IMG/VR virus record: IMGVR_UViG_3300046534_001004 | DNA length: 20,000 bases | Direction: 5' to 3' (one strand) | Source of the DNA: an uncultured virus (IMG/VR IMGVR_UViG_3300046534_001004) | Taxonomy: Duplodnaviria; Heunggongvirae; Uroviricota; Caudoviricetes | Shown here: in pieces, positions 1-20,000 of the stretch | How positions within the stretch are numbered: the stretch's first letter is position 1 | How the letters are laid out: every line of letters starts with the position of its first letter | Program-made: the position numbers and the translations under genes | The notes under the pieces: model-generated | What the model was told of the DNA's origin: nothing | Database searches by the model: none | The model's input: only the letters and a program-made list of their open reading frames with translations

Positions 1-1
1 G

Positions 2-4187: not shown

Positions 4188-4212
4188 CTTATATTTTCCT
4201 TCTTGGGTTATT

Positions 4213-4241
4213 GAGGATGCCTCCATCGCGAAGACACCCTC
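4213..4241 (-). promoter_or_regulatory. Intergenic stem-loop between tail tube and chaperone genes
   Basis: GAGGGUGUCUUC-GCGAU-GGAGGCAUCCUC, 12-bp stem with G-U pairs, no U-tract. Confidence 0.6.
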
Positions 4242-4250
4242 TTGAGTTTA

Positions 4251-5780: not shown

Positions 5781-5791
5781 TTAAGGCCTCC

Positions 5792-6208
5792 TTACTTTGT
5801 TTCAGTGTACTCAAAATCCATGAGCACGTTCAACTGACGGAATTGACCCTCGCTGGGTACTTCTTGAATGCGAACATTTTTGAACCACACTCCATTATCA
5901 GATGATTTACCTTCATATGCGTTGGCCACTACTTTAGCCAAGATATAAGAGTCTGACAAGCCATTTCCGGTTGGAGTGAATATAGAAGCGATAGCTGTTC
6001 CTGTTCGCTCGAACATTCGTTTTCCTGTTCCCCCAAGAGTTTTCTGAGATCCGGTTGCGTGTCTTATAACGAATACAGCCCATGGATTATTTGATTTATC
6101 TCTTTCTTTCTGAACGTCTTCCCAATACAGACTATTATCTGTGGGTGTCCATGCAGCTAACATCATTGCACTTATATCGTCGACAGCTTCTTCATAAGTA
6201 AGACTCAT
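5792..6208 (-). CDS. Tail terminator protein
   Basis: 138 aa; PWAVFVIRH...TLGG...RMFERTG...IFTPTGNG pattern; directly upstream of the tail tube gene; ATGA overlap with the preceding gene. Confidence 0.8.
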   Translation of the reverse strand: MSLTYEEAVDDISAMMLAAWTPTDNSLYWEDVQKERDKSNNPWAVFVIRHATGSQKTLGGTGKRMFERTGTAIASIFTPTGNGLSDSYILAKVVANAYEGKSSDNGVWFKNVRIQEVPSEGQFRQLNVLMDFEYTETK

Positions 6209-6597
6209 CTATGCATCCCCACAAATCCAAGTAATTGAACGTCTCCAGGTTGTAGGATTTGAATGGCTTTGATACCAAATGTTTCTAACCCATCTTGCAC
6301 TTTGATGAAATTACGACAATCAGTTGTTCCAGGAAAGAAAATAGCAAAATACTCAGATGACGCAATCAGATCATTGAATTCAGTACCTTGCCCAAGGGCA
6401 GGAAGACCGAATTGAGTAATTGAGCCAGGAGGAAGAAACACAGCTTTAGTCGTCAGTACGACGTCTGCTCCTGTTTGGGCTCCCCAAGGTTTAGCTGAAT
6501 CTACAGGTGTCTCGGGATTTTGAATAAATGTTATAGTCCGCCCACGAGCAGTAATCAAACGTTCTGAAGTTTCTGCGAGTTTAGAGTAATCAAACAT
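6205..6597 (-). CDS. Head closure / head-tail joining protein
   Basis: 130 aa, MFDYSKLAETSERLITARGRTITF...KPW; lies between adaptor and tail terminator; TAATG coupling. Confidence 0.7.
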   Translation of the reverse strand: MFDYSKLAETSERLITARGRTITFIQNPETPVDSAKPWGAQTGADVVLTTKAVFLPPGSITQFGLPALGQGTEFNDLIASSEYFAIFFPGTTDCRNFIKVQDGLETFGIKAIQILQPGDVQLLGFVGMHR

Positions 6598-7106
6598 TAG
6601 CGGATAACGCCTCCGTTAGAACTTCCAAATGTTATCTGACGCATCAGACCATCAGCTTTGGAGACTATTGGGTATTTACGCCCAACAGAGCCATCACCTG
6701 ATCCAGAAAACACAGTTTTAGTCTCGAGAGGTCCCAGTGTCTCCGTAAGAGAAATGATGCCAGGACCATTGATTACTGTGTTGTTTATGAACAAGGTGTT
6801 CGTGAGAGAGTAACGAAGATACTCTGCCATAGCTCTCTTAAGTTGAACAGGTAGTGCTACCGGATCAACAATGAAATAGTCTGTTGGATAAGACAAAGAT
6901 TGAGTTTCAGAAATCGTAAGTCCAGGAACTTTATCACCCCAGCGGAGATCAATGTACTCTGTAGTGAGGCGTAGCTGAACTTCAATTTGAGCTTCTGTTT
7001 CAGAAATTGTGACACCACGATCAGACCAATAAGTGACATAATCAGCATACGAGAGATAACTCTCAGAAGTCGATAGTCCAGTTGCGTCTTCTACGATGAT
7101 TGCCAT
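6597..7106 (-). CDS. Head-tail adaptor protein (family often labelled 'DnaT-like')
   Basis: 169 aa; MAIIVEDATGLSTSESYLSYADYVTYWSDRG...TEYID...QSLSYP...LPVQLKRA...ETLGPLET is the hallmark pattern of this adaptor family; first neck gene. Confidence 0.82.
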   Translation of the reverse strand: MAIIVEDATGLSTSESYLSYADYVTYWSDRGVTISETEAQIEVQLRLTTEYIDLRWGDKVPGLTISETQSLSYPTDYFIVDPVALPVQLKRAMAEYLRYSLTNTLFINNTVINGPGIISLTETLGPLETKTVFSGSGDGSVGRKYPIVSKADGLMRQITFGSSNGGVIR

Positions 7107-7115
7107 TATTGCACC

Positions 7116-7520
7116 TTAAGAGAATACGAGATCGAGGAAAGCGGTTGGTTCTCGCCACTCGTTCAAGTAATGAATTGTTACAGTCCCTGCTATCTCAGCT
7201 CGAATACTCCAAGATCCAATGTAGACACGACCAAGGAAAGCAACTTCGTCTGCGACTGCTGCTCCGGCGCTCATGATACGTGTTCCTTGGGTGTATGTTA
7301 CATCACCGGCATCAGTATCGACTGAGAAAGACACACCGAAATCAACTGGCTTTCTAGTGTAGAAATCAACATCTACATCAAAGTCTTCGGTCACTGTTCC
7401 TGGACCACCGAGTGAAGTCACGCCAGTGTAAGTGCGCTTGTACCAATCTGACTGTGACTCAGCACGACGTCGCTGTCTTGCATTAAACATTTCACTACGA
7501 CGTCGCATTAAAAGTGACAT
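7116..7520 (-). CDS. Hypothetical virion protein (Arg-rich N-terminal arm, beta-rich body)
   Basis: 134-aa ORF tightly packed in the head gene cluster. Confidence 0.6.
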   Translation of the reverse strand: MSLLMRRRSEMFNARQRRRAESQSDWYKRTYTGVTSLGGPGTVTEDFDVDVDFYTRKPVDFGVSFSVDTDAGDVTYTQGTRIMSAGAAVADEVAFLGRVYIGSWSIRAEIAGTVTIHYLNEWREPTAFLDLVFS

Positions 7521-7521
7521 A

Positions 7522-8085
7522 CTACTTCCCCATCAACGGACGAACTTTCTTCTCGCCAGATTTTGATTGATCCAATGGAGACACCGGATGCTGATCAAGC
7601 AACAACGATCGATTCTTTTGAAAATTTGCAACTCGATTAGCACGAGAAGCGTTAGAAGATGCGATAGTACGCATGATCTCACGTTGGTTGGCTTGAGGAT
7701 CGACTTTTTGGTGCATCAGACGAGCCGTTACTTCGGCTAGCGCATCACTGCGTTTTTTCTTCTCTGCTTTGAAATTGGCTTCTGCAGAAACGATTTCATC
7801 AAATTCTTCCTGAGCTTGAACGATATCTGGGTGATCGTAACCCATAGTGTTCAAAGCAGAGATTTCTTCATTTTCAACCAAAGGCTGTTCTTCAACGATG
7901 TCTTTAGAAACGTCGAAGTTACCACGTGAGAATTTTGGTGCGGCGTTGATGATGTCAGCTCGCTTTAGGTTTTCAAAATCACCCAAGGAGGCAACTGCGT
8001 CCACTTTTGGAGCACCGTCAGCAGTCCATTGTTCGTCATCCATGGCGTCCATCAGGCCAAGGGCTTCTATAATTTTATCTTCCAT
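7522..8085 (-). CDS. Conserved hypothetical head-cluster protein
   Basis: 187 aa; N-terminal IIEAL..MD..DDEQWTADGAPKVDAV...LKRADIINAAPKFSR motif recalled from genes following the capsid in related siphoviruses; acidic and coiled-coil C-terminal part. Confidence 0.65.
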   Translation of the reverse strand: MEDKIIEALGLMDAMDDEQWTADGAPKVDAVASLGDFENLKRADIINAAPKFSRGNFDVSKDIVEEQPLVENEEISALNTMGYDHPDIVQAQEEFDEIVSAEANFKAEKKKRSDALAEVTARLMHQKVDPQANQREIMRTIASSNASRANRVANFQKNRSLLLDQHPVSPLDQSKSGEKKVRPLMGK

Positions 8086-8106
8086 GGTATTGACCTTTCA
8101 GGAGGA

Positions 8107-8131
8107 AGGAGAGCCCAAAGTGAGCTCTCCT
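8107..8131. terminator. Intergenic stem-loop (weak or antisense terminator, or mRNA stabiliser)
   Basis: AGGAGAGC/GCTCTCCT 8-bp stem. The T-rich tail (gtttatt) follows on the + strand; the sense (-) side has only TCCTCC. Confidence 0.5.
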
Positions 8132-8136
8132 GTTTA

Positions 8137-8655
8137 TTAGCTATCTAGCATAGTAACCAAAGTGATTTCCAATACACCGACCGCTGTCAAGATGACTGAT
8201 TCGTCATCTACGATACTTGCTGCGTCGATAAGCACATTGAGGTTCAGTTCAAGGCCACCTCCTGTGTTGTCGAGCACGAAATCGACACCGTCTGCCACAG
8301 TGAGCAGAGGAGATACTTCTGCAGTAGCAGCACCGAGCGCGGTGCTCGAGATGAAGTCAACGTCAGTGCCAGCGATAGTTGCATCATCTGCAGGTGTAGA
8401 ACCTACGCCGAAGTCACCATCAAAAGTAGCAGTAAGGTTTGCATCAGAACCAGAGCCAAAGAACTGGACCTGAATAGCAGCGGCCATGATCTTAAGATGA
8501 CCTTCTGGAAGACCACCTACGACAATTGAACCATAACCAACGGCTGCTCCAACAGAAGTGACTGTGACAGCATCGTTTAGTTCCAACTGGATTTTTGTAA
8601 CTGCTTGTGTCTGCGCTTTACCACGAGACAGACTGCGAGGAAGACCCTTAGACAT
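8137..8655 (-). CDS. Virion structural protein, possible capsid decoration protein
   Basis: 172 aa directly after the major capsid gene with strong SD AAAGGAG; basic N-arm MSKGLPRSLSRGK then an acidic beta-rich domain. Confidence 0.6.
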   Translation of the reverse strand: MSKGLPRSLSRGKAQTQAVTKIQLELNDAVTVTSVGAAVGYGSIVVGGLPEGHLKIMAAAIQVQFFGSGSDANLTATFDGDFGVGSTPADDATIAGTDVDFISSTALGAATAEVSPLLTVADGVDFVLDNTGGGLELNLNVLIDAASIVDDESVILTAVGVLEITLVTMLDS

Positions 8656-8678
8656 AATTCTCTCCTTTCATGAGAGTT

Positions 8679-8700
8679 GGGCGGAACCTAAGTTCCGCCC
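8679..8700. terminator. Strong stem-loop after the major capsid gene
   Basis: GGGCGGAAC-TTAG-GTTCCGCCC perfect 9-bp stem; U-tract (tgtttt) only on the + strand side. Confidence 0.6.
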
Positions 8701-8709
8701 TGTTTTCAG

Positions 8710-9753
8710 TTATGCCTCGCGAGAGATCAGACGAGCCATCTTGATCTGCTTGCGCTCTGGGAACACACGGCTCCAAGAAGCAGCAGTTGCAAGAACCGAG
8801 TTGGCTGGACCACCTGCTGGAGTAGCACCACCGTAAGCGTGACCTTTAGGGTGGAAACCCCAACGAACGCGGTTGTAGAGGATTTCTTGACCAGCGCCGT
8901 TACCTGCTCCTGGTTGATCGTCAATCGCAGTGGGTTTGTCCGGAGAGCCTTGTGCAAAAACAATCGCACCAGCGCCGAAGACCCAGCTTTCATAGACACC
9001 GCCGTTAGCGGGAAGACCATCGTCAACAATTACTTCGCGGCCCAAAAAGGTGGGAACCGAGATAGCACGACCGTTTACAGCGTCAGAGATGAAGTCGATC
9101 AAGTTGTTTTTCAACATACGAGCGTAGACCACTGAGTGAACCATGATCATCGACAGATCTTCCATGCTGTCACCCATTGTCAACGTAGTGTCGATAAAGG
9201 CTTCTGCAGAGAAGTCAGTCACACCAGCGACATAAGAGCCGCCTTTGATGTCATTGGTCATGTCACCTTGAGTGTGCTCAGAACCAGCAGGAGCGGCAGC
9301 GTTATCTGCGAAGATTCCGTTGACGACGCTGACAAAAGCAACTTGCTGACGACGAACCCAATAGTCTGCGACGCGAGATTGGATAGCAGCGGCAGGGTCA
9401 TCACCTGACATCAACTTTGCAAGCTGAGTTGCGGTCCAAGAGTTGTTACGCTCAAGACGAACAGCGACTTCTGTGAGAGTACCGATTTTGTTTGGATCGG
9501 GATCAACCACGCCACCGGTGAAGGTGTTGCGAACGCTTTCGTTAGATACGCGCTCTTCGTCGTTGTCGAGGTCGTCGTAAGACGGCATATTGAAAGTGAG
9601 ACCGCCACCGTTGAGCAGAGCCGCCATGTCACTATCAGAGACTACGGCACCAGAACGAATGAGGCGAGATTTTTCTTCAGTTTCCTGCAAAGCATAGGGA
9701 GTGAAGATTTCGGGGACAATGATGTCCGAGATTGAAGTGTGTCCAGAGGCCAT
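8710..9753 (-). CDS. Major capsid protein
   Basis: Likely start MASGHTSISDIIVPEIFTPY at 9753 (SD AAGGA), 347 aa; T.ISDIIVPEIF.PY, GGLTFNMPSYDDL, MVHSVVYARM, PTFLGREVIVDDGLP are typical HK97-fold coat motifs of this group; follows the scaffold gene. Confidence 0.95.
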   Translation of the reverse strand: MASGHTSISDIIVPEIFTPYALQETEEKSRLIRSGAVVSDSDMAALLNGGGLTFNMPSYDDLDNDEERVSNESVRNTFTGGVVDPDPNKIGTLTEVAVRLERNNSWTATQLAKLMSGDDPAAAIQSRVADYWVRRQQVAFVSVVNGIFADNAAAPAGSEHTQGDMTNDIKGGSYVAGVTDFSAEAFIDTTLTMGDSMEDLSMIMVHSVVYARMLKNNLIDFISDAVNGRAISVPTFLGREVIVDDGLPANGGVYESWVFGAGAIVFAQGSPDKPTAIDDQPGAGNGAGQEILYNRVRWGFHPKGHAYGGATPAGGPANSVLATAASWSRVFPERKQIKMARLISREA

Positions 9754-9795
9754 TGAAGAGGATCCTTTCCTAAGATGTTCATGGCTAGATAAATT

Positions 9796-9856
9796 GCTAG
9801 TCCCATGACCAGCCGAAGAGAGTTTGTCAAGCACCTCCCATGGAAGCACTTGACAA
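9796..9856 (-). promoter_or_regulatory. Two CAUGG-loop hairpins in the capsid gene leader
   Basis: UUGUCAAGUGCUUC-CAUGG-GAGGUGCUUGACAA (9856-9824) and GCUGGUC-AUGG-GACUAGC (9813-9796). Confidence 0.7.
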
Positions 9857-9858
9857 TA

Positions 9859-9887
9859 TATTTACATCACGCTGCAGAAGATTGCAA
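9859..9887 (-). promoter_or_regulatory. Putative sigma70-like promoter for the capsid/tail genes
   Basis: TTGCAA-N17-TAAATA in the scaffold-capsid intergenic gap. Confidence 0.55.
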
Positions 9888-9891
9888 CAGG

Positions 9892-10716
9892 TTATTTGCT
9901 CGGAGCCGGACGAGCACCACCAATAGATGTTCCAGCAGCCGTTGCGAGTTGAACAGCTACTTCTCGGTCTGAATTGATGAGTTGGCCCTGTTGAGTAACG
10001 TTCCAGTTATCACCAGAGAATGGATTCTTACCACCGTTGACGCCACCCATACCGCCGCCAGCACCACCACCTGTAGATGTAGGCCACCAGTGAGGACGCT
10101 GTTTCTGCATCTCTTGCATGAACTGCTTTACGTCTACTCCAGGAGTAACCCCGTCAGCGTCAGTCTTAACAATCCATTTGCCAGTAGTCTCATCTTTCTC
10201 GAGGTAGTCTGCAGCCACGAGTTCAATATCACGAAGGGCTGTGCCATGGACTTTCATCTCAGATGCAATCTTACGAACAACTTCGTTGCGAGAGCCTGTG
10301 GTGATAGTTCCGTTCAGCTTGTCGTTGTTTGAAGTCAGCTCACCATTCGCTGTTGTGAGTTCTTCGATCTGCCGTTCCAGAGGTGCAGTTTTCTGCTTCA
10401 TGCGAGACTCAACGATCTTGTTGATTGCCTCATCATCCAGCTTGCCACCACTCGCAGCTTCCAATTCTTCGACCCGATCCAAGGTAGCTTGAACTTCTGT
10501 AGCGTTCATACCTTTGAACGGTTTGAAATCAGCTTTCGTTTTGGCGTGGTCTTCACGCTCTTTACGAAGACCTTCTTGAACACGGTCTATGTCCACTTGG
10601 GTTTTCATACCCACTACGCCTGTCAACACGGCTCTGCCATCTTGCTCAGTGTACAGAAATTTAGCATTCGCAGGAACTTCTGCCATTGTTTCGTAGAATA
10701 GTTCGATCGGATCCAT
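9892..10716 (-). CDS. Capsid scaffolding protein
   Basis: 274 aa, coiled-coil (IDRVQEGLRKEREDH...), C-terminal PHWWPTSTGGGAGGG...KNPFSGDNWNVTQQG motif; between portal and capsid; SD AAAGGAG. Confidence 0.88.
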   Translation of the reverse strand: MDPIELFYETMAEVPANAKFLYTEQDGRAVLTGVVGMKTQVDIDRVQEGLRKEREDHAKTKADFKPFKGMNATEVQATLDRVEELEAASGGKLDDEAINKIVESRMKQKTAPLERQIEELTTANGELTSNNDKLNGTITTGSRNEVVRKIASEMKVHGTALRDIELVAADYLEKDETTGKWIVKTDADGVTPGVDVKQFMQEMQKQRPHWWPTSTGGGAGGGMGGVNGGKNPFSGDNWNVTQQGQLINSDREVAVQLATAAGTSIGGARPAPSK

Positions 10717-10752
10717 GTCCGGTCTCCTTTATAGAACGGCTCCATGGCCGCT
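10705..10752 (-). promoter_or_regulatory. Two CAUGGA-loop hairpins at the scaffold translation start
   Basis: AGCGGC-CAUGGA-GCCGUU (10752-10735) and GACCGGA-CAUGGA-UCCGAUC (10724-10705, one mismatch); the second loop contains the start AUG. Confidence 0.7.
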
Positions 10753-10763
10753 GTTATTGGGGA

Positions 10764-12272
10764 TCATTCCCCTGTCTTAGCTTTGTTGCGGGCAGACTTT
10801 TTATCGCCTGTGTCGTCTCCGGCTGAGTTCTGGCTAGGTCCAGCCCTATCTCCAGTCTCTGGTGTCTTGAAAGGATGATCTTCAGCTTCCTCTAGTTTAG
10901 AAGCTGCCATTTCTTCTTCAAAGGTGAGAGCAGTGATTTTGCGCTTGCGAGCAATAGCATGTAGTGAAGAAGCGCTGATTGGGAAGCCCAAGGTGCGAGC
11001 AGTTGCCATCTCTACCATCGTCTGACCTGTGAGTGGTGTCTCGCCGAATTCTTTGTTCGGTGTGACTTTTACTTCTTCTGGGTTTAGACCCATCCATTCA
11101 GCACACGTCTTAAGGATATCTTCAAGCGCCATAGCGCCAGCGTCTGCGACTTGATTGAGGTCTGCTGTGCGGCTGGCAACACGGATACGCATACTGTCAC
11201 CGCTCTCACGCTCGCGGCTGGTGCTGTCTAGAGTCTGCGCACCCATAGTACCAGCACGGCTCTCTAGTTTATCAATCGCCTCACGTTGCTCTGTGAGACC
11301 TTTACCTTCTACTCCAACAAATTCCGCTGTTGCTCCTAACGGAAGATCTAAGCGAGCACCTGTACCAGTCCGGACAGCCTCTCCTTCGTCTAGTTGAGCT
11401 CCAGTAGTAACGAAAGTATCTTGCCCCTGCATGAACAAATTTTGGCGATAATCTGCATCTGACCTAAACAGGGTTAGACAAAGGTTGCTCAAGTCCAAAA
11501 GAACTGGATCATCAGGCTCAGCAGTGACATCAACGGAGTTTACAATCACAAACGGAATTTTATTGAGTTCTCTACCTTTGTAGGAAGGTCTCTTCAACTC
11601 ACTCTCATTAAATGCGCTGTCGCGGAACAATGCTTGGCTGTATGTTCCGATTTGTTGGTTATCGTCAGGTTCACCGAGAATAAGGACTCTGTGTTGGGTT
11701 GTGAGATCCCACATGAAGTTATCTTTGCGAATGTAAGTAGTCTCGTCTAAGATCACCATGTTTAGTGAGTCTTTATTGAGATCAGTAGTACCAACGTCCC
11801 AATTGATGATACGTTCTGCTCCATATAGAGACAAAATCGGTAAATCTGGTCCAGTGCCAGGAACAAGAGGCAAATCTGCCATAATACCAGTGCGACCAAC
11901 AAGAAGTTGCTCTGAGTTGATTCGACGGAGGAAGTCTTCAAGTTTTTCACCCTTACTAGAGCGAATGTCTTCCATTCCTTCGGGTAGCTCTATTTTCGGA
12001 GGTTGATTGTGCATCATACCAACCGCCATCTGCACAGCTTCGCGAACAAAGTTGTGATAACGAGCTCTTTTCAAATAAGCGGCGTAAGCAGTAGCTCCTG
12101 TAGAGTTTGCGTCTTTTCCATAGCCATCCAAAATGTGAGATGAAGTAGCAGGAAGGTATTGAGTATTTCGAGACTTAACTCGCTTCTCACCTTTGTACGT
12201 ATCACGCATTTGCTTCCAGTCTGGAAGGTGTTCCGAGTAAGAAGGGTGATTTTGAGTGAGAGAATTATCCAT
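10764..12272 (-). CDS. Portal protein (DUF4055-type)
   Basis: Likely start MDNSLTQNHPSY at 12272; HPSY...W..MRD.YKGE..VK....YLP, Y.AYLKRA.Y.NFV, AERIINW, IPFV, PVLLDLSNL, ESGDS motifs; directly after TerL. Confidence 0.93.
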   Translation of the reverse strand: MDNSLTQNHPSYSEHLPDWKQMRDTYKGEKRVKSRNTQYLPATSSHILDGYGKDANSTGATAYAAYLKRARYHNFVREAVQMAVGMMHNQPPKIELPEGMEDIRSSKGEKLEDFLRRINSEQLLVGRTGIMADLPLVPGTGPDLPILSLYGAERIINWDVGTTDLNKDSLNMVILDETTYIRKDNFMWDLTTQHRVLILGEPDDNQQIGTYSQALFRDSAFNESELKRPSYKGRELNKIPFVIVNSVDVTAEPDDPVLLDLSNLCLTLFRSDADYRQNLFMQGQDTFVTTGAQLDEGEAVRTGTGARLDLPLGATAEFVGVEGKGLTEQREAIDKLESRAGTMGAQTLDSTSRERESGDSMRIRVASRTADLNQVADAGAMALEDILKTCAEWMGLNPEEVKVTPNKEFGETPLTGQTMVEMATARTLGFPISASSLHAIARKRKITALTFEEEMAASKLEEAEDHPFKTPETGDRAGPSQNSAGDDTGDKKSARNKAKTGE

Positions 12273-12279
12273 AAAGAAG

Positions 12280-12308
12280 AGCATACCTATATCTAATTGG
12301 TTTGACAA
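12280..12308 (-). promoter_or_regulatory. Putative sigma70-like promoter for the portal gene (leaderless)
   Basis: TTGTCA-N17-TATGCT followed by 7 nt (CTTCTTT) and ATG; no SD. Confidence 0.65.
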
Positions 12309-12318
12309 TCACTTTTTG

Positions 12319-13851
12319 TCAATGAGCGCCTGTCGTTGTTCCAGAACTTCCGGTTTGCCCAACAGAGCGGATAAAATAGCGAACCTCGTCAGCGACGTGG
12401 TCTTCTGCATCAGTGTTTATGTCGTCTGGGTTCTTTTCATCACGAGGGAGCACTGGTAAAGTCTCAATAAAAGCTGTGCAGTTAGTAAAAACGAATAAAG
12501 CTGGCTTCTCCCGAGGGAAAATAGCGATAACTTCACCTTTTTCATCTTTCTTCACGTTGGGTCCAGCGTTTCTGATACGCTGTCTCAGCTGAGACCAACC
12601 TGTAACACGAGATCCAGGACGTTTATCGGCTGCGTTCCACATAATTCCAGGATAAATGTTCCCATCATCCAATCTTACTTTGGCTTTCATGTCCGTGGCG
12701 ATACAATTTCCGTTTTCAGCCGCAAATATCTGCGAATCAGCAACACCTGCTTTGACGCGACACCAAGTTGTTCCTCTTTCTCTCCAACCACATTCCATTT
12801 CTTTCTTAACGATACCTTCGGAGATCTCTGATGCCAGAATATTAAGCCCTTCGTTCGGACGGTTGTCGTGGCATCCATACCATTCTCGAATACGAAATAC
12901 ATCTCCCCGAATGGTGCTTCGCCAATTTCCATCCCGTAGCTGTACGTCTTCTCCATTGCTGATTGCCCACCAGCCCACAGAGAAAGGCTTGCTCGCACCC
13001 CAGTCAAAGCTCCTAGTGATCTTCCAGTTATATGGAATATCAAACGGTAAGACAACATTGTACTTAGGATCCCATACATCGTCAAACATTCCTCCAGACA
13101 CGATATCCCATGAACCATCTAACCAAGCCTTCTTCTGGGCTTCGTTATCAGCCGATGCAGCAATCTTCTGTTTGTATTCTGGATCTGCTTCAAGTAGTAT
13201 GAGGTTCTCATCAATGTGTGATTTTATGCTGAGACGTGGAGGTTCTTTCTCACCATCTTCATCCATAATGTCACGACGAACTATCATGTTTAGGCTCTGC
13301 GGTTTGAAACGGTTCTTTACCCAATTATGACCAGGACCCGAGGGGTTCGTGGTTGCCCGACACATGCGTGGCATACCCTTCACAGAGGAACGGCAGGTAG
13401 ACATCATTTTCTTGTAGCCTTTGGCGTTAGGCCAGTTACAGAGTTCTTCCCAGCCAATCCATGGATATTCGTGACCGTGATAGTTATCATAGTCATTTTC
13501 TTTTGCGAATTGTCGCAGAAGAAGCTGCTCACCAGTGGGCCAAGTCCACGTATGTTCGGAGTGGTTGAATTTCGCAGTAGGCCAAATCTGCGGTATCCAT
13601 TTTTTTGTCTTCGAGATAACGTCGGTCAATTGCTTGTAGGTCTGACGAAACAGAATTCCTTTCCACCCAGCACCATGTCCTTTACCAACGTGCATACAAT
13701 AAGACATGAGGAGAGAATCAGTTTTCCCACCTCCACGTGTCCCCTCAAACAATACCTCAAAGACAGGGGTTGAAGACAAGAACGCTTCTTGCGATCCAGG
13801 CATAGGTCTCCAGACTACATTCTTTGGATATGATTTCGTTTCAGTTTGCAT
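12319..13851 (-). CDS. terL: Terminase large subunit
   Basis: 510 aa; Walker A EGTRGGGKT, Walker B WIGWEEL, motif III ATTNPSGPGHNWVK, nuclease RSFDWG and EDHVADEVRY. Confidence 0.96.
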   Translation of the reverse strand: MQTETKSYPKNVVWRPMPGSQEAFLSSTPVFEVLFEGTRGGGKTDSLLMSYCMHVGKGHGAGWKGILFRQTYKQLTDVISKTKKWIPQIWPTAKFNHSEHTWTWPTGEQLLLRQFAKENDYDNYHGHEYPWIGWEELCNWPNAKGYKKMMSTCRSSVKGMPRMCRATTNPSGPGHNWVKNRFKPQSLNMIVRRDIMDEDGEKEPPRLSIKSHIDENLILLEADPEYKQKIAASADNEAQKKAWLDGSWDIVSGGMFDDVWDPKYNVVLPFDIPYNWKITRSFDWGASKPFSVGWWAISNGEDVQLRDGNWRSTIRGDVFRIREWYGCHDNRPNEGLNILASEISEGIVKKEMECGWRERGTTWCRVKAGVADSQIFAAENGNCIATDMKAKVRLDDGNIYPGIMWNAADKRPGSRVTGWSQLRQRIRNAGPNVKKDEKGEVIAIFPREKPALFVFTNCTAFIETLPVLPRDEKNPDDINTDAEDHVADEVRYFIRSVGQTGSSGTTTGAH

Positions 13852-13867
13852 GGTGAATGTTCTTTCC

Positions 13868-14479
13868 TTAGCTTAGGCCAAACCCTGCACGAACATCGAC
13901 AGCCTGTAATTCGGTCAGTGTGGTTGCGTTTGCAATTTGCAGATAAAGCCCGCGACGTGCGGCGGTTAGCCCCCCATACATCACTCGGTATTGCGCCCGC
14001 AGCCGAAGGATTTTCTCGGCCATTTCTAAGGCAGTCTCTCCTGTAGGTTCGCGTAGCGTGTCGATCAAATCATTCTGACCGCCTGCAATCACCTCTTTGG
14101 AGGCTTCCACCTGCTCAGCCCAACCTTCGCGTTCTTCAAGAGGGTAGGCTTTGCTTAGAGGTTCCATCGCCTCGGAATAGGTACGGTTGACTTCGTGGTT
14201 CAAGGCGGCACGGATATCCTCAATAGTCATGTCCGAGATGGTCACAGTGCGCAGAACGCGGTCAGCCTCTACCGTGTCAACGCTGGTCGATGTAGTGCGT
14301 GCGGTTGTTGAGTTGTCCACCGTTACTACAACGATAGGAACAAGCTGTTCATCACCATAGACACCAGCGGTAGGGGGTGAAACCGTTTGGCCGTTCCCAA
14401 ACGTCACGCGACCTTTCCCGTCGTGGTAAGTGCCGATCACTTGACCGCCTCTGATGTGTGCAAGCATTTGTCGCGGCAT
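13868..14479 (-). CDS. Fibre-associated protein / tail fibre assembly chaperone-like
   Basis: 203 aa; C-terminal YPLEEREGWAEQVEA...EMAEKIL...GLTAARR...IANATTLTELQAV helical domain typical of genes following phage fibres. Confidence 0.65.
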   Translation of the reverse strand: MPRQMLAHIRGGQVIGTYHDGKGRVTFGNGQTVSPPTAGVYGDEQLVPIVVVTVDNSTTARTTSTSVDTVEADRVLRTVTISDMTIEDIRAALNHEVNRTYSEAMEPLSKAYPLEEREGWAEQVEASKEVIAGGQNDLIDTLREPTGETALEMAEKILRLRAQYRVMYGGLTAARRGLYLQIANATTLTELQAVDVRAGFGLS

Positions 14480-14513
14480 TTGTCGTTCCTTTATGTAACA
14501 TTTGTTATGCGGT

Positions 14514-15200
14514 TTAGCCTAAAAGAACAGCTACTTGTGGGGCTTGGGATAAACGGTTGTAACTTGTGGTTATTTTCCCCGATGTGGTCTGACCGTTTTG
14601 AACCGCTTGGTACGCTACTCCTAGTCTGTTGCTGCCCAAAATTTCCGTGGTTGTTTGATTCCAAAACGGTAAGGAGGTGTTGTATGCCTCAACAGTAATT
14701 GTGGTGGACGAGGAAGACTCAGCATAAATAAACGAACCAGCAACAACCGCCATTTGATCGTCTGCTGTCCCTGTAACTACTGCAAGATCGTGAGCGGTGG
14801 GGCTTGTCTGTAGACTTGTTGCAGCTGATAAAACTGACGGTGATCCCGTGGACTTTCTAAAGGATAGCATTTGACCGAGAAAGCGATTGCTTGATACCTG
14901 TCTAAAGTTAATTGAAGACCCTAAATCCCCAGCGTCAGCTACTTTTGTGAAAATAATAGTTCTTTGGCTGGTGGAACTAGATTCCTGCCTCTCGACTTGC
15001 TTGGTCCATCCCGTAGGGGTAAGTGTGGTGGATCGTGACATGGTGCTGGCAACAAGTAAATCACCGACAACCGTTCCTGTTGGAACTGAAAGCGCGCAAA
15101 ATATTGATACGTCGATACGGTAATTGCCCGCAGCCACAAAAGAAACTGTGCCACCCGCAGCGGCGTACCTTCCGCCTCTCATTGGTAAAATCAGGCTCAC
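14514..15200 (-). CDS. Putative fibre tip / receptor-binding accessory protein
   Basis: 228 aa, Ser/Thr-rich beta protein with VPTGTVVGDLLVA...TPTGWT...FTKVA motif seen in phage minor tail proteins; GTGA overlap with the fibre gene. Confidence 0.55.
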   Translation of the reverse strand: MSLILPMRGGRYAAAGGTVSFVAAGNYRIDVSIFCALSVPTGTVVGDLLVASTMSRSTTLTPTGWTKQVERQESSSTSQRTIIFTKVADAGDLGSSINFRQVSSNRFLGQMLSFRKSTGSPSVLSAATSLQTSPTAHDLAVVTGTADDQMAVVAGSFIYAESSSSTTITVEAYNTSLPFWNQTTTEILGSNRLGVAYQAVQNGQTTSGKITTSYNRLSQAPQVAVLLG

Positions 15201-17476
15201 GGTAACGCTTCCACATTAACCGTAGAATAGTCCGTTCCACCAATGTTCAAGATCGTCATTCGTAAAATGAATTTATCACCGTCAGTGGTTGTTAGAGAAT
15301 CGCCAGAAACGTTATCAATTGCCGTTGTCGTGACTGGCCCCGCGCTGGCGTTGTTTGTCATGAAAATTAAAATGTCTGTTGCAGTGTTTGTCGCTAGTGT
15401 AGGGGCCGAAAGTGGAAACGCTCCACCGTTGACGATCTGTTTATAGTTTGAATCAGTTGGTGTTGCTGTGACGCTTGGTGTGTAGGTTGTGCCACCGCTT
15501 TGAGTACCATCATCAGGCACAGACGCAGTGAAACCCGCTGTGAGGTTGTCAGGCACGTCAGCTTTCAAAGTGTCCGCGTCATATGCTTGCACGTTAACAC
15601 CGATTTCAAGACCTACGTTTGCCCTAAACAGAACAAAATTCAGAAAATCAGAGCCGTTGTTGCCACGAAGGACACAGCCGGACAATGCACCGTTACTACC
15701 ACCGGAGAGGCCGATTGTGTATTCAACAAAGTCGGTCAGGGTGTTGCCACTAGTGTTTGAAGCTGTACTGCTAACGAACCACCACCCAAAGAACGTTGCT
15801 TCCTTCAGGACGGGGTTCAGAACGTATTCTTCTAACTCAACGCCAGCTTTCGCCAGAGTTAAATCAGCATAGTTGCCTTGACCGTACTGCAAAACGAAGT
15901 TGCCACTGGTGAAACGGTAAAGCCTGTGACCTACAAAAGTTCCTGAACCTAAAGATATCAGGCTTCCGGCATTATCCCAGACCAGAGGAAGGTCAGTGTT
16001 TCCCCCTGCATCAGTAGCATCCCGCAAGGCCAAGAAAAATTCAGCATTCGTCACTTGGTTAAAAGGAACTGTGTTTGCGTTAAACACGTTACCTGTTGCG
16101 CCAATCTTGACTATCGATCCTTCTGTAGCATCAAAACCCATGTCACCAGCGCGACCGGTAATTATTTGACCTTCTTTTAGCGGTACACCGTTAGCCACAA
16201 GAACTCGAACGATATCTCTTATCGTGTTCGCGTAGTGGCCGATTGTATTACTGGTGTATTCAAAGCTGACAATGGTGGAAGTTGACGTGTCCACAGCGAT
16301 CCGCATAACGAACAGTTTACTCTCCCAGTCTAGGTGGGTCGGAAGGGTAGTCTGTTGCTGCAAGGTGCCTGTGTTATCGACATAAACCCAAGTGGATTCC
16401 TTCGTTAAATCTGCAACGGTAACACCTACAGCACCCGCATAATCTATCCTGAAATAACCTGTAGATGTGTAAATTTCACCTTCAATCACTGGTATAGTGA
16501 AAGTTGTCCCACCAACCACTACTGATGCCGTGTCAAAATCTTTAGATATCCCTGTACTTCGCGCCTTCAATAATGCGCCATCAACATCATCAAAAAACGT
16601 TTGCACATCAGTGCTGACAGCAACCTTCAGGTTAGTGTCGTCAAGTGTCATGTTTGCAACGTCGAAAGTTGGCGTTGCCCCACTCACTAGGCTTTGGTCC
16701 AGCGCCTTCACGTCAATAATTGACACCAGTTCCGAATCCATCAACGCACCAGCCGCTTCAACGGTTGTGGCGTTAGTCACGTTCGCACCGTCTGCCACAT
16801 TCAGGGCGGTTAGAAGTGAACTTTTACTGATAGAACCTGTCAGCCCTACAACAGCTTGAACAGCGTCTGTCTGATCATGCTTAGACCAATTTCCGGTGAA
16901 CGTGGTGGCTGAAGCATCGTCTGTTGTCGCAACGATGTTGTCACCGATTGCAAACGCCACACCGTCGACAATGCCAGCAACGGAAACGTAATAGAACCAA
17001 CCTGTTTGAGCCAATCCGCTGCCAGCAAAACTTCCTGAAGACGCGTCCCAATCACCCTTGTAGACCATGCCGTTCGCAAGTGCAGCAATGTCAATTTCCA
17101 TTTGGTCAAGGTCGACCGCTTGTGAAACAGTGATATAATCTAGCTTAGTTTCATCGCCCAACGTGAAACTTGCTGTCGTATTATCTAAAACGGTTGACCA
17201 CGCCTGAACGGTTGACCCAATATCAGCACTTTGCAACGCGCTGTCAGCAAGGGAACCTTGTGAGCTTGAGGCAATGCCAGACAAACCTGAACCGTCACCG
17301 TCTATTGCCAGACCGCCGATTGTAGCTAGGGCAGTTTCAGGTAAAGGCACGTCAGAAAAGTTGTTGGTGGCAAGTAACGCACCAGCAACACTACCAGAAG
17401 GGCCTTGAATTCCTACTTGAGAAACTACAATAGTAACTGATTCTGGAGAAGTGACAACTATTGTTTTATCTGACAT
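15197..17476 (-). CDS. Fibre protein (tail or head fibre)
   Basis: Likely start MSDKTIVVTS at 17476 (759 aa); short GIQGPSG collagen-like stretch, repeated NN.SD and IG..VQA(W/Y) fibre motifs, YKGDWDAS domain, Gly/Thr/Asp/Ser-rich. Confidence 0.75.
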   Translation of the reverse strand: MSDKTIVVTSPESVTIVVSQVGIQGPSGSVAGALLATNNFSDVPLPETALATIGGLAIDGDGSGLSGIASSSQGSLADSALQSADIGSTVQAWSTVLDNTTASFTLGDETKLDYITVSQAVDLDQMEIDIAALANGMVYKGDWDASSGSFAGSGLAQTGWFYYVSVAGIVDGVAFAIGDNIVATTDDASATTFTGNWSKHDQTDAVQAVVGLTGSISKSSLLTALNVADGANVTNATTVEAAGALMDSELVSIIDVKALDQSLVSGATPTFDVANMTLDDTNLKVAVSTDVQTFFDDVDGALLKARSTGISKDFDTASVVVGGTTFTIPVIEGEIYTSTGYFRIDYAGAVGVTVADLTKESTWVYVDNTGTLQQQTTLPTHLDWESKLFVMRIAVDTSTSTIVSFEYTSNTIGHYANTIRDIVRVLVANGVPLKEGQIITGRAGDMGFDATEGSIVKIGATGNVFNANTVPFNQVTNAEFFLALRDATDAGGNTDLPLVWDNAGSLISLGSGTFVGHRLYRFTSGNFVLQYGQGNYADLTLAKAGVELEEYVLNPVLKEATFFGWWFVSSTASNTSGNTLTDFVEYTIGLSGGSNGALSGCVLRGNNGSDFLNFVLFRANVGLEIGVNVQAYDADTLKADVPDNLTAGFTASVPDDGTQSGGTTYTPSVTATPTDSNYKQIVNGGAFPLSAPTLATNTATDILIFMTNNASAGPVTTTAIDNVSGDSLTTTDGDKFILRMTILNIGGTDYSTVNVEALP

Positions 17477-17753
17477 GTACCTCGACCCTTTCACTTGCTA
17501 AAGAGGTTCCATCTGAAAGCTCCACCTGTAATCGTAGATAATACTTCCCGACAGTAACCATAGAAGTACCTTCAATAGTTATTGAGGCTAATCCGTTTGG
17601 GCCATCTACGAGTGTCGTTGTGCATTTTCCGTTGAGATCACCAGAGGCTTCAACTACCACAGGAGAAGTGATTGGAATAGCAGCCTCTGCTTCGTCTTGA
17701 AACAAGAATTGCAGAGTTGCATCTGATCCACTAGTGATAGAAATAATGTCCAT
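17466..17753 (-). CDS. Small beta-sandwich protein, possible fibre attachment adaptor (BppU N-terminal-like)
   Basis: 95 aa; I.ITSGSDATLQFLFQD...DGPNGLASITI...VGKYYLRLQV pattern; overlaps the fibre gene start; SD GAGGA. Confidence 0.55.
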   Translation of the reverse strand: MDIISITSGSDATLQFLFQDEAEAAIPITSPVVVEASGDLNGKCTTTLVDGPNGLASITIEGTSMVTVGKYYLRLQVELSDGTSLASERVEVHVR

Positions 17754-17777
17754 TTTATCCTCGTTCTGATAAAATTT

Positions 17778-17806
17778 AACTTAGCATTTCTTGTTCGCAC
17801 TAGCAA
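17778..17806 (-). promoter_or_regulatory. Putative sigma70-like promoter for the fibre cassette/terminase
   Basis: TTGCTA-N17-TAAGTT in the intergenic gap. Confidence 0.55.
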
Positions 17807-17815
17807 GCCTAAAAC

Positions 17816-18121
17816 TTATCGAGACCTATCCGTGTTGCAGCCCTGACAGATAATTCTTAGATTGTCAAGATTGTTAGTTCCTCCCTTGGACTTTTCTAAG
17901 ATATGATCGAGACTAGCCATTCTTCTCGCTTGGGCTTTTCTTCCCTCTGGATCTTTGTTCCTCTTTATCTTTTCTTCATGAATTGGAAAGTACATTCTTT
18001 CCCCACAGCAAGGACAGAAGAATTCTTTATGAGCCCAAGCGCGAGCCTTCATGCGGCTTCCCGCTCTCATCGCTGTTTTATGAAAGTCTTTCATAATACG
18101 CTCCCATCGTTGCCGTCCCAA
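17816..18121 (-). CDS. HNH endonuclease
   Basis: CPCCG...ASLDHILEKSKGGTNNLDNLRIICQGCN: Zn-binding CxxC pairs plus DH...GG.N...NL...C..CN motif. The start could be the internal Met near 18094. Confidence 0.9.
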   Translation of the reverse strand: MGRQRWERIMKDFHKTAMRAGSRMKARAWAHKEFFCPCCGERMYFPIHEEKIKRNKDPEGRKAQARRMASLDHILEKSKGGTNNLDNLRIICQGCNTDRSR

Positions 18122-18420
18122 TCGTAGTAGACCATACGACCGTTTTCTCGTTCTACATGTGTAGATACGTGATGCCAGTGTGATTTCATTTCGTTTGTGA
18201 CCACGGTATCGTATTTCACCGGTTCATAGATAATCTTAACCTTAAACAAACCTCGAAAATATTGTCTGTGTCCTGAAACGGTGATGTCGGACACAACTCG
18301 TTCACTTTGCATCAGTGTTCGATAATCATAAGAGCTCAGCTCGAGAACGTGTTTACCTCCTGTCTTCATGTCTTCTGTTTGCATTGCTTTGTGATATAGA
18401 TAGTTGATTACTTGGATCAT
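18091..18420 (-). CDS. Hypothetical protein
   Basis: 109-aa ORF with GGTGGA SD in the minus-strand gene array. Confidence 0.65.
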   Translation of the reverse strand: MIQVINYLYHKAMQTEDMKTGGKHVLELSSYDYRTLMQSERVVSDITVSGHRQYFRGLFKVKIIYEPVKYDTVVTNEMKSHWHHVSTHVERENGRMVYYDWDGNDGSVL

Positions 18421-18431
18421 TTTATTTCCAC

Positions 18432-18647
18432 CTAAAAAAATTCAGTTAAAACATCTGGGTGTGATGGCAATGGAGCAAAAGGTCGTTCAACTCCCCACGG
18501 ACCCAAGAACGCTTTACCATAGCCAAGCGACCACCCATTGTGTGCTTGTGACCACTTCACGTGAACCCACTTGCCGCGATGAAACGCTAAACACTCGACA
18601 CCATCTTCACGATCAGTAAGAGGGACTTCCCAAGGTTTGTCAGTCAT
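18432..18647 (-). CDS. Hypothetical protein (Trp-rich)
   Basis: 71 aa; ATGA overlap with the upstream gene, GGAG SD. Confidence 0.65.
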   Translation of the reverse strand: MTDKPWEVPLTDREDGVECLAFHRGKWVHVKWSQAHNGWSLGYGKAFLGPWGVERPFAPLPSHPDVLTEFF

Positions 18648-18910
18648 CTCTCTGCTCCCTTCATATTTATTTCGGTAATCTCAGCAACGACGCACTGAGC
18701 TGCACCCTGCATAGAGTATCCACCAACCAACCCGACAACCGAGTAAGCTGCGTCCCAGTTTTTGTCTACGTAAGTACACCCGATACCCTGAACTTCTCCG
18801 TTTCGAGCTTCTTGCAGCATCCTTTCTAAAAACTTGATGACTACTTCGTTCGGTTCAGTTACGACAGGTAAACTGTGATATCCCGGTCCTGATATTACGT
18901 TGTCACTCAT
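18644..18910 (-). CDS. Conserved hypothetical phage protein
   Basis: 88 aa; VIKFLERMLQEARNGEVQGIG pattern; GAGGA SD; abuts the upstream gene. Confidence 0.7.
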   Translation of the reverse strand: MSDNVISGPGYHSLPVVTEPNEVVIKFLERMLQEARNGEVQGIGCTYVDKNWDAAYSVVGLVGGYSMQGAAQCVVAEITEINMKGAER

Positions 18911-19114
18911 TTAATATCCTCTATTTAGAGCAGTGACAGCTGAAGGTTTCCTCAACTGCCCTGACAAAGCTTCCAAAATCGGTGCTTGCAGATCCATGAA
19001 GACAGATCGCATCAGTGAGTGAAGATCTGTCTGGAACTCAGCAGCATCTCTCGGATCGGAGGGTGTCCATCGTTCTTGGAATCTCTTCATCTTGTGATTT
19101 AATGCGTCGCTCAT
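18911..19114 (-). CDS. Hypothetical protein
   Basis: 67 aa; AAAGGA SD. Confidence 0.65.
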   Translation of the reverse strand: MSDALNHKMKRFQERWTPSDPRDAAEFQTDLHSLMRSVFMDLQAPILEALSGQLRKPSAVTALNRGY

Positions 19115-19180
19115 GGTATTCCTTTCAATATTGTACCCAAGAGGGCAGGCGCGTGCCTTGGTCTAAAAATCCGAAAATGG

Positions 19181-19660
19181 TTATCTAAAGGGACCAGTTC
19201 CTAGATCATCTAACTGATCTACTTTGTCTGTATGGCGACTGTTTCCCATTAGTTCTCCACAGCGATGGCATTGTCCAGTGTGGACATCAAAGTCTTTGCT
19301 CTCGCATTTTGACTTGTAGGCGAAAGTGTCTTTTGCGACTTGTGTTGGGTCGCACGAATCGAAAGTAAACATGTCACCTTCTATTTTGGTTATTTCACAT
19401 GGTCTTCCCTTGTTGGAGAAAACGAAGTCACCAACTCGCAACTCACTGGCAGGATAGAACTTGGCTTGAGTTATTTTGCTCATACTTTCAGCCTCAGTGA
19501 GGTCTATTTGGTTGTTTACCATTTCTGAGTGGTAGATCAGGTCTTCGCAGAGTTTGTTTCCTAGCTCATTCAGGGGCGGGTTGGCATACTTTTTCCGATC
19601 TATCATGGCTCCGGCTAGGATCTTGAGTTGTGTCGAGCTCATCTTTACGATTATGTTCAT
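19181..19660 (-). CDS. Hypothetical protein (SH3/KOW-like middle, Cys/His C-terminus)
   Basis: 159 aa; first gene after the 19747 promoter; PASELRVGDFVF..GRPCEITKIE and C...C..CG motifs. Confidence 0.6.
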   Translation of the reverse strand: MNIIVKMSSTQLKILAGAMIDRKKYANPPLNELGNKLCEDLIYHSEMVNNQIDLTEAESMSKITQAKFYPASELRVGDFVFSNKGRPCEITKIEGDMFTFDSCDPTQVAKDTFAYKSKCESKDFDVHTGQCHRCGELMGNSRHTDKVDQLDDLGTGPFR

Positions 19661-19718
19661 GGTTTGTCTCTTTTTTATTTTGGTATTTTAATCGGTGTTT
19701 GCTAAGTCATGCTTTATA

Positions 19719-19747
19719 ATGTTAAGGGGGTGGGGTTGGTGTGACAA
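19719..19747 (-). promoter_or_regulatory. Putative sigma70-like promoter at the head of the minus-strand gene array
   Basis: TTGTCA-N17-TAACAT, about 60 nt upstream of the ATG at 19660. Confidence 0.65.
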
Positions 19748-19810
19748 GTGGTTTGTGTCGCTTGGGATGAGGGGATTACGGAGGATGGGGTCCAGCTCTG
19801 GGTACGCGAG

Positions 19811-20000
19811 AGCCTGTACCAAAAATGCCACACCCTGCCCGTTGGTGGGGGCGGGTTGCATAATTGCAACAGTAGGGCAAGGCTTGCGCCCTGCCCCTTG
19901 TGCCTTGCCCGTTGCCTTACTTGCTAGGTGCCACCAACCAGCTTTGCGCCACGTTGCTAGCCCACGTGGGCATATTGTGCGCGGCCCAACCACCGCGCGG
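19811..20000. other. GC-rich, GA/TC-free, palindrome-rich non-coding segment (runs to the window edge)
   Basis: Hand count A32 C64 G54 T40 (62% GC); zero GA and zero TC dinucleotides; several inverted repeats. Confidence 0.85.

Follow-up and report, generated by a model that had tools for sequence, protein, structure and literature searches.

The 20,000-nt stretch of DNA analysed here, IMG/VR record IMGVR_UViG_3300046534_001004 from an uncultured virus of the class Caudoviricetes (hereafter the window), ends in DNA that contains neither the dinucleotide GA nor its complement TC. This GA/TC-free zone continues past the window end and is a complete, self-contained gene cassette for a small basic protein, P0001. 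The purge of GA and TC acts on the DNA and not on the composition of the protein, and it is conserved throughout the clade to which the phage belongs. We propose that the zone and a second, shorter one within the tape-measure protein gene are hypermodification-free islands of a thymidine-hypermodifying phage, a reading to which we assign a probability of roughly one half.

The lack of any GA or TC in positions 19811–20000 had been pointed out in an earlier note on this sequence, and a direct count confirms it; the final GA at 19810–19811 and the base counts of the segment (A32 C64 G54 T40) also agree. An exact 52-mer from the zone led to two IMG/VR contigs, one of which, of 39,599 bp, was used to extend the window. 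Bases 1–10671 of this contig correspond to window positions 9330–20000 with 99.96% identity, and the two sequences joined represent 48.9 kb of one phage. L002 coordinates, used below for positions past the window end, equal the window coordinate minus 9826. On the overlapping contig the zone extends over 615 nt, far beyond its part in the window (Table 1). The composition of the zone predicts 72.8 GA+TC, and none is observed over the 615 nt; 20,000 shuffles gave a mean of 72.8 and a minimum of 46 (ln P of zero approximately −77). The whole window contains 2781 GA+TC (approximately 139 per kb), and its other long GA/TC-free runs measure 124 nt (1657–1781), 42, 39 and 38 nt. The longest runs free of frequency-matched dinucleotide classes in the 48.9 kb are 69 nt for AG/CT and 73 nt for CA/TG. 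Outside the islands the observed/expected ratio of GA/TC is 1.12, which is only a slight enrichment. The GC content is 60% in the zone and 46% in the genome, and on account of this excess a C-to-T deaminase signature (TC to TT, GA to AA) was considered and rejected.

Dinucleotide-free runs can stem from uneven composition. The genome of phage lambda (L042) contains a TA-free run of 593 nt at 20018–20611, the expected number of which is 3.5e-9 under a uniform model, and a run statistic by itself can thus be misleading. For this reason, the tests in which the amino acid sequence and the codon usage are held fixed carry more weight than the run statistics. Recoding of a reading frame inside the zone, which the earlier note had proposed to look for, was evident from such tests. 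The P0001 coding sequence (CDS) contains 0 GA+TC, while 5000 draws of codons from the codon usage of the phage give 27.0 ± 3.9 and never fewer than 14. Permutation of the gene's own synonymous codons, which affects the codon junctions, gives 9.6 ± 2.3; the same within-gene permutation yielded p < 0.05 in six of the seven loci at which the gene was analysed, and p = 0.066 in the seventh (L011). All seven serine codons of P0001 are AGC, while the favoured serine codon of the genome is TCT. The non-coding flanks are purged as well: the 196 nt upstream of the gene contain 2 GA+TC against 24.4 expected, and the 105 nt after the stop codon contain 0 against 12.3.

The purge is conserved among the relatives of the phage. 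In the seven loci the cassette, taken from 200 nt upstream of the gene to 100 nt after its stop codon (about 690 nt), contains 2, 16, 28, 5, 32, 8 and 16 GA+TC, while 93–110 are expected from the local density. In the more distant relatives the purge is strictest from about −60 to about +200–240 relative to the P0001 start codon. Among the 10 strand-symmetric dinucleotide classes, GA/TC alone shows extreme runs in each of the four complete relatives (expected number 1e-17 to 6e-8). The 37 GA/TC sites tolerated in the leakier relatives display no bias in their flanking bases, which suggests that the bare dinucleotide is what is avoided. Acidic residues are absent from 17 of the 36 aligned proteins of the P0001 family; their mean content in the family is 0.8%, compared to 12% in the structural proteins of the phage. 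P0001 is devoid of Asp and Glu because the codons of both amino acids begin with GA, which the purge has removed.

Every gene around the zone lies on the minus strand. On this strand, a terminator-like hairpin that ends the upstream genes is followed by a TC-rich stretch of approximately 190 nt and then by the purged DNA. The latter contains, in this order, four direct repeats (GCGCAACATTAWTRC, plus strand), a 15-bp palindrome, the ribosome-binding site AAAGGGG, the P0001 open reading frame (ORF) of 132 codons and two GC-rich hairpins. Only the close lineage of the window has the array of four repeats. Conserved in the region 5′ of P0001 are a promoter-like element (TTTACA or TTTACT, approximately 17 nt, TAnGTn) and a block of the 5′ untranslated region (UTR), and the ribosome-binding site lacks GA in five of the seven loci. 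The 3′ UTR comprises a 10-bp GC-rich hairpin with a GCAA loop, followed by a second hairpin and AUUUUUGG; the second hairpin with this U-run looks like a terminator. The fold of the 3′ UTR has a minimum free energy of −51.9 kcal/mol (z = −1.58, alone not significant). The TC-rich stretch adjoining the zone, about 510–700 nt past the window end, has 39 GA and 8 TC in 191 nt and 70% purines on the plus strand. Its peak of 35 GA per 150 nt on that strand (contig mean 8.6 ± 3.5) is the highest in the contig, and it includes three copies of GACGGACTCGGCGAAAA. The coding strand 5′ of P0001 is TC-rich and GA-poor in all seven loci. A 208-codon ORF antisense to P0001 (L002 9869–10495, plus strand) was regarded as an artefact, since DNA free of GA and TC cannot hold TGA on either strand and long frames stay open by chance. 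An Rfam search gave only a chance microRNA match far under the threshold, and no named phage was matched by the window end in megablast.

The second GA/TC-free island, of 122–124 nt, lies within the tape-measure protein (TMP) gene. Each of the four complete relatives has a homologous island of 96–124 nt, with a GC content of 66–70%, at the corresponding place. Resampling predicts 5.4–7.7 GA+TC for these islands, and 0 are observed in all five genomes. The five islands are only 58–83% identical in DNA, and one third of all possible substitutions in them would create GA or TC; no GA or TC has been gained. This divergence without any gain implies that the TMP island is kept by selection and not merely inherited. 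The likeness of the TMP island to P0001 is compositional only (E = 0.017 unfiltered, 0.31–2.4 filtered). One relative (G004) has two more GA/TC-free runs, of 107 nt (32556–32663) and 91 nt (17869–17960), with a GC content of 69–74%. One of the two encodes an Ala/Pro/Thr/Gly-rich linker, and neither is an outlier in other genomes.

The P0001 gene encodes a basic protein of 132 amino acids with zero Asp and zero Glu. It is also encoded at seven further viral loci with 75–96% identity, and its homologues form 75 clusters in a large protein collection, many of them on contigs of 62–65 kb. No Pfam domain is present in the 75 clusters. P0001 itself has no family in Pfam, PHROG or PADLOC, no match among named phages by tblastn, and no match in the sequence profile search against the Protein Data Bank (PDB) or in the Atlas. 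In the AlphaFold model, residues 50–130 are predicted with a pLDDT of approximately 90, and a disordered Lys/Ala/Thr-rich N-terminal tail is predicted. The five best rows obtained for P0001 with VIA-align are winged-helix or DNA-binding domains with Z scores of 5.2–6.0 (JetA, APC2, ORC, CENP-B and MukF). SAMD1, histone H1.8 and DpnI are found at Z scores of 4.3–4.5, with several unrelated folds reaching comparable values. Foldseek returned no match to the model at E ≤ 0.001. P0001 is probably composed of a winged-helix domain and a disordered basic tail, a weak assignment that is drawn from the predicted model.

A search among longer proteins returned three proteins of approximately 890 amino acids that contain the P0001 domain at 55% identity. 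These longer proteins belong to the McrB family, as is evident from the NCBIfam McrB match (3e-32), the AAA_5 domain and the motifs GPPGTGKT and DEINRAN. Residues 49–128 of P0001 share 55% identity with residues 567–645 of the McrB-family protein, and the McrB AAA+ module is split into two halves by the inserted P0001-like domain. The insertion is present in seven of the 77 McrB-like loci of species-representative genomes, all seven from Rhodobacterales, and absent from the other 70. The globular domain of P0001 is 44–55% identical to the seven Rhodobacterales insertions. The gene directly downstream of the insertion-bearing McrB gene in R. capsulatus encodes McrC (3e-73). This McrBC operon (L044 6001–14654) adjoins tail genes of a gene transfer agent (GTA_TIM, Rcc01698_C). 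The alignment of P0001 with an 887-amino-acid McrB-like protein is confined to the insertion, and P0001 has no ATPase motifs; judged by its sequence, it has a domain in common with McrB but falls outside the McrB family. The cellular copies are the best control available for the purge. The seven McrB copies, with a GC content of 51–63%, contain 24–30 GA+TC and 8–10 Asp+Glu, while the seven phage copies, with 59–66% GC, contain 0–10 GA+TC and 0–2 Asp+Glu. If the proposed reading of the zone holds, a constraint at the level of DNA has rewritten the protein here, and the comparison of the phage and cellular domains would represent an unusually clean natural experiment on the tolerance of a fold to the loss of charge.

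The gene content of the phage supports the view of the earlier note that the phage hypermodifies its DNA, but points to a different enzyme. The note had proposed that DpdA inserts the 7-deazaguanine dPreQ0 at the G of GA, and it had named dpdA, folE, queC, queD and queE as genes to search for. None of these was found. In tblastn searches with DpdA, FolE, QueD, QueC and QueE of phage NP1 (Queuovirinae) against the window, the contig and four relatives that are 97–100% complete, the best E value was 0.58, and that of DpdA alone was 8.3 in the clade. As a positive control, the NP1 proteins matched themselves with E values from 0, for DpdA, to 1.5e-97. Similarly, none of the 72 distinct ORF products of the clade matched the DpdA PHROG families (phrog_887), which recognised DpdA of NP1 with 3.6e-100 and that of phage iggy with 5.1e-86. 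The Pfam families of FolE, QueD, QueE and QueC did not turn up in the ORF scans. The Pfam TGT family (PF01702) is void as a test for DpdA: it was negative in six records but also missed the annotated DpdA of NP1 and iggy, so that Pfam-based statements on the absence of DpdA are unreliable. A DpdA may be too divergent for both tblastn and the PHROG families.

In place of a preQ0 pathway, the phage encodes a putative 5-hydroxymethyl-deoxyuridine (5-hmdU) DNA kinase (5-HMUDK), recognised by the family HMUDK_hel (PF18723) with 1.1e-34. The same search also finds the kinase in PhiW-14, ViI and M6. The kinase gene occurs in each of the four relatives with a completeness of at least 97% and was not found in a 72%-complete relative. 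It is flanked by a GT1 glycosyltransferase gene (1.7e-06) and by a gene for a conserved 254-amino-acid protein without an assigned family. The thymidylate synthase (TS) homologue (Thymidylat_synt 1.3e-22, phrog_5131 8e-126) shares 47% identity with the product of the TS-like gene of PaMx11 and, judging by synteny only, would act on dUMP rather than dCMP. Further genes of the contig encode PolA, a dCMP deaminase and an HD protein. The four relatives of at least 97% completeness all retain the genes for the glycosyltransferase, TS and the HD protein, and the module has the same gene order as in PaMx11. In the matched passages of PMC5889632, 5-hmdU is described as being converted "in a sequence-specific fashion" in this pathway, and in those of PMC6449724 the restriction-resistant sites of M6, ViI and PhiW-14 are enriched in TG/TC. 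According to these passages of the two papers, it is established that 5-HMUDK phages modify a sequence-defined subset of T after replication. Given the kinase pathway and the complementarity of TC and GA, the T of 5′-TC-3′ is the likelier modification target, although the sequence cannot tell which strand carries the modified base.

GA/TC-free islands also occur in phages with related structural genes. The capsid protein of the phage is approximately 62% identical to that of NP1, and the N-terminus of its TMP is 31–36% identical to those of NP1 and iggy; the TMP alignments with both phages end at residue 303, ahead of the island. Phage iggy has three GA/TC-free islands of 157–171 nt and NP1 has two, the range for both phages being 111–171 nt, and all of them lie in Gln/Pro/Ala-rich disordered linkers. 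In all three islands of iggy, and in one of the two of NP1, the purge exceeds what the protein sequence demands, with p values of approximately 1e-3 that are only suggestive, since the islands were picked after the fact. The DpdA of iggy has a strict GA motif, proven according to PMC10484667. Genome-wide, GA and TC are under-represented in iggy (L038 and L039; observed/expected 0.77 and 0.80), and the corresponding value for NP1 is approximately 1.12. Lambda and T7 have no GA/TC outlier run. At NP1 (L036) positions 39525–39883 on the minus strand, annotated as intergenic, an open frame with a Gln/Pro/Ala-rich tail ending in TATPPWAQPQQ was noticed. This end resembles the C-terminus of a 293-amino-acid iggy protein (ATPPWHNPQ), and the frame may be an unannotated or mis-started gene.

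We propose that thymidine is replaced by 5-hmdU in the DNA of this phage and that, after replication, a sequence-defined subset of 5-hmdU would be decorated through the action of the kinase and, in this clade, the glycosyltransferase. The context of the decoration would be 5′-TC-3′, with GA on the other strand. A stretch with no TC or GA on either strand could then not be hypermodified. Selection would have purged one whole transcription unit, including the upstream elements, the ribosome-binding site, the coding sequence and the terminator, strongly enough to strip P0001 of Asp and Glu. The occurrence of the P0001 domain in the McrB protein of McrBC suggests that P0001 takes part in a contest over modified DNA. 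P0001 may coat or read the modified DNA of the phage, or may act as a decoy for a McrBC variant. A gene kept free of the mark, and presumably unmodified in virions, would be readable and invisible to modification-dependent enzymes regardless of the state of the rest of the genome. The islands of iggy, with its proven GA motif, also speak for hypermodification-free islands, though only suggestively, since they were picked after the fact.

Several points weigh against this proposal. The published hint on the sequence context, as far as the matched passages go, is TG or TC, yet TG is over-represented in the zone (observed/expected 1.56), so that the kinase of this phage would need a narrower specificity. 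GA and TC are hardly enriched in the rest of the genome, and the modification of TC in this phage is an unproven proposal drawn from sequence. The transferase expected after the kinase (AADT/aGPT-Pplase) was not recognised among the ORFs scanned, and literature searches found no published pathway that combines 5-HMUDK with a glycosyltransferase. None of four characterised 5-HMUDK phages (PaMx11, M6, ViI and PhiW-14) has an outlier dinucleotide-free island of any class, which indicates that the pathway is not generally accompanied by islands. The TMP island encodes nothing separable and fits no specific purpose proposed for the P0001 cassette. Finally, the winged-helix assignment of P0001 is weak, with VIA-align Z scores of 4–6 and empty Foldseek and PDB sequence searches.

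The serious rival is that the islands avoid another process that reads GA:TC and is unrelated to the kinase, namely a host nuclease, a DNA deaminase with a two-base context or an unrecognised phage enzyme modifying G or A, for example a very divergent transglycosylase using host preQ0. The presence of islands in iggy and NP1 and their absence from the four characterised kinase phages agree with such a process. Many ORFs of the clade have no family, and since Pfam is blind even to the known phage DpdA, divergent enzymes could hide among them. However, a defence that reads a dinucleotide should deplete the whole genome, which is not seen in the ratio of 1.12 outside the islands. No DpdA or preQ0 gene was detected by tblastn or PHROG with working controls, and the iggy and NP1 islands are not homologous to those described here and are statistically borderline after post hoc selection. 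We consider this explanation rather unlikely, though worth serious attention.

A constraint at the level of RNA is less likely. The P0001 transcript, and perhaps an antisense transcript too, would shun GA and UC to escape an endoribonuclease or internal Shine-Dalgarno-like GGAG sequences. The strictest purge in the distant relatives does cover the 5′ part of the mRNA, and the lack of GA in most of the ribosome-binding sites could be understood in this way. For double-stranded DNA, however, the joint absence of GA and TC amounts to one constraint, while one RNA would have to satisfy two unrelated constraints. In the lineage of the window the purge also extends over the repeats upstream of the likely promoter and over DNA past the terminator-like hairpins, and protection of RNA would hardly account for an island of 122 nt within a tape-measure mRNA of 3 kb. 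An effect on RNA thus appears improbable.

In the reading put forward in the earlier note, DpdA places 7-deazaguanine at the G of the GA motif, and the zone serves as a genome end, pac site or origin that cannot be modified. This reading is very improbable. It is consistent with the relationship of the structural module to that of Queuovirinae, to which NP1 with its DpdA, FolE and QueCDE belongs, and with the strict GA motif of iggy. The location of TerS near the zone and the four-copy direct repeat inside the purged DNA would suit a genome end, pac site or origin. The enzyme part of this reading is largely refuted by the controlled searches described above, which returned no DpdA, FolE, QueC, QueD or QueE. 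As for the cis-acting site, a conserved protein gene fills the zone, the repeat array is limited to the close lineage of the window, and two contigs with terminal repeats begin at different genes, so that no fixed genome end is known. The idea that the islands are a mere by-product of GC-rich, low-complexity, acid-free coding sequence grown by local duplication, without any selection on dinucleotides, could draw on the Ala/Thr/Gln/Lys-rich and partly repetitive peptides that they encode, on the GA/TC-free low-complexity linkers of iggy and NP1 and on the TA-free run of lambda, about 600 nt long, to which no such story is attached, but it is contradicted by the controls and hardly credible: the 234-nt globular domain is not of low complexity and has 0 GA+TC compared to 24–30 in cellular copies of equal GC content, the non-coding flanks are purged, the codon junctions avoid GA and TC with codon usage fixed (all loci but L011), and the TMP islands have diverged without a single gain.

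Returning to the proposal of hypermodification-free islands, a more specific version can be put forward tentatively. This phage would belong to a cold-water siphovirus clade with a hitherto undescribed, TC-strict pathway of kinase and glycosyltransferase and with anti-islands purged of the motif, and its winged-helix protein P0001 would read or shield modified DNA or disarm a McrBC variant that has captured the domain. If so, a counter-defence gene would be invisible to the modification-dependent restriction that it opposes, and the sequence alone would reveal the modification motif, so that islands would report the specificities of uncultured phages. It would also be the first case found of a phage sparing a defined part of its genome from its own hypermodification by removal of the motif. 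Text searches of the literature found no motif-purged modification-free zones, and the two papers on deazaguanine motifs are silent on them in the matched passages. Scanning for extreme dinucleotide-free islands could be used to flag modification motifs in uncultured viruses. The connection of an uncharacterised phage protein family with a variant McrBC would then provide a concrete pair for the study of the conflict between phage and host over modified DNA.

The coordinates of the zone, the islands and the neighbouring genes are summarised in Table 1. The promoter match downstream of the cassette is the sole match in 2 kb, but shuffled sequences average 1.6 matches, which makes it weak evidence. 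The TerS gene is located approximately 8 kb upstream of TerL (window 12319–13851), and between the two lie the P0001 cassette, small genes, an HNH endonuclease gene and a 765-amino-acid ORF. The latter is poorly conserved: only its final 150 residues or so match in one relative (G003), and no match was found in the other relatives. It may be a variable accessory gene. The stretch was found in the assembled contigs of four runs labelled "ice metagenome". In three of these runs (X1–X3), the core of the zone is represented by one invariant 567-nt unitig (L002 10041–10607), which has a k-mer depth about two to three times that of unitigs 1–2 kb away (in X1, 55.8 compared to 26.9 and 19.8), although depth derived from contigs is unreliable, and the raised depth around the core spans approximately 3 kb. 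The zone could be shared by co-occurring strains.

Table 1. Location of the GA/TC-free islands, the P0001 gene and other features (window positions unless a record is named).
Feature	Position	Strand	Remarks
GA/TC-free zone, full	L002 9986–10599		615 nt; single GA at 10600, then 84 nt free to 10683
GA/TC-free zone, part in window	19811–20000	.	rest runs approximately 510 nt past window end
P0001 gene, 3′ end	19917–20000	−	TAA stop 19917–19919; CDS L002 10091–10489; start equivalent to approximately 20315, past window end
P0001 3′ UTR	19811–19916	−	GA/TC-free
GA-rich stretch (plus strand) adjoining the zone	L002 10685–10875		TC-rich on the coding strand
Sigma-70-like promoter match, for next genes downstream	19719–19747	−	TTGTCA, 17 nt, TAACAT; just outside zone
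159-amino-acid ORF, first gene downstream of cassette	19181–19660	−	normal GA/TC density; no family match
765-amino-acid ORF between HNH and TerL genes	15197–17494	−	no Pfam or PHROG match
TMP gene	2–2986	−	PHROG tape-measure families, best E = 6e-93; runs off window start
Second GA/TC-free island	1659–1780	.	approximately 122–124 nt; inside TMP gene, residues approximately 401–443, Ala/Thr/Gln-rich
TerS gene	L003 12437–13105	−	41% identical to terS of PaMx11; approximately 1.3 kb upstream of zone
Putative 5-hmdU DNA kinase gene	L004 18568–19473	−	

Among the characterised systems, the 5-HMUDK phages PhiW-14, SP10, ViI, M6 and PaMx11 share with the present phage the kinase, the TS homologue, the HD protein, the dCMP deaminase and PolA. 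They differ in that the present phage has a GT1 glycosyltransferase gene between the kinase and TS genes and no recognised amino-acid:DNA transferase. The kinase is only approximately 27% identical to known 5-HMUDK, and the structural genes belong to a different lineage. The Queuovirinae and Iggyvirus phages with DpdA resemble the present phage in the capsid protein (the identity of about 62% to NP1), in the GA:TC step and in the possession of smaller islands. They are distinguished by DpdA, FolE and QueCDE, which were not found here, and by islands that are four to five times shorter and statistically borderline. Moreover, iggy is depleted in GA/TC over its whole genome (0.77–0.80), while the present phage is not (1.12).

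McrBC, a Type IV (modification-dependent) restriction system, is connected to the phage by the P0001 domain, which forms the insertion in the McrB AAA+ module with McrC encoded adjacently. P0001 differs from McrB in having no ATPase, and most McrB-like loci (70 of 77) do not contain the insertion. The TF1 protein of phage SPO1 belongs to the HU family and prefers DNA containing 5-hydroxymethyluracil. Like TF1, P0001 is a small basic protein of a phage whose DNA would be derived from 5-hydroxymethyluracil, but its predicted model resembles a winged helix joined to a disordered basic tail. Avoidance of restriction sites is known from phage genomes and from the DNA that is first to enter a cell, such as the early region of T7, upstream of and including the ocr gene, and the leading regions of plasmids. 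In these systems, as in the P0001 cassette, selection strips a short motif locally around a gene that may function in defence or counter-defence. The P0001 cassette differs from them in that the motif is a bare dinucleotide, and the purge is total over approximately 700 bp and reaches the amino acid composition of the protein; the motif is probably the modification target of the phage itself and not a restriction site of its host.

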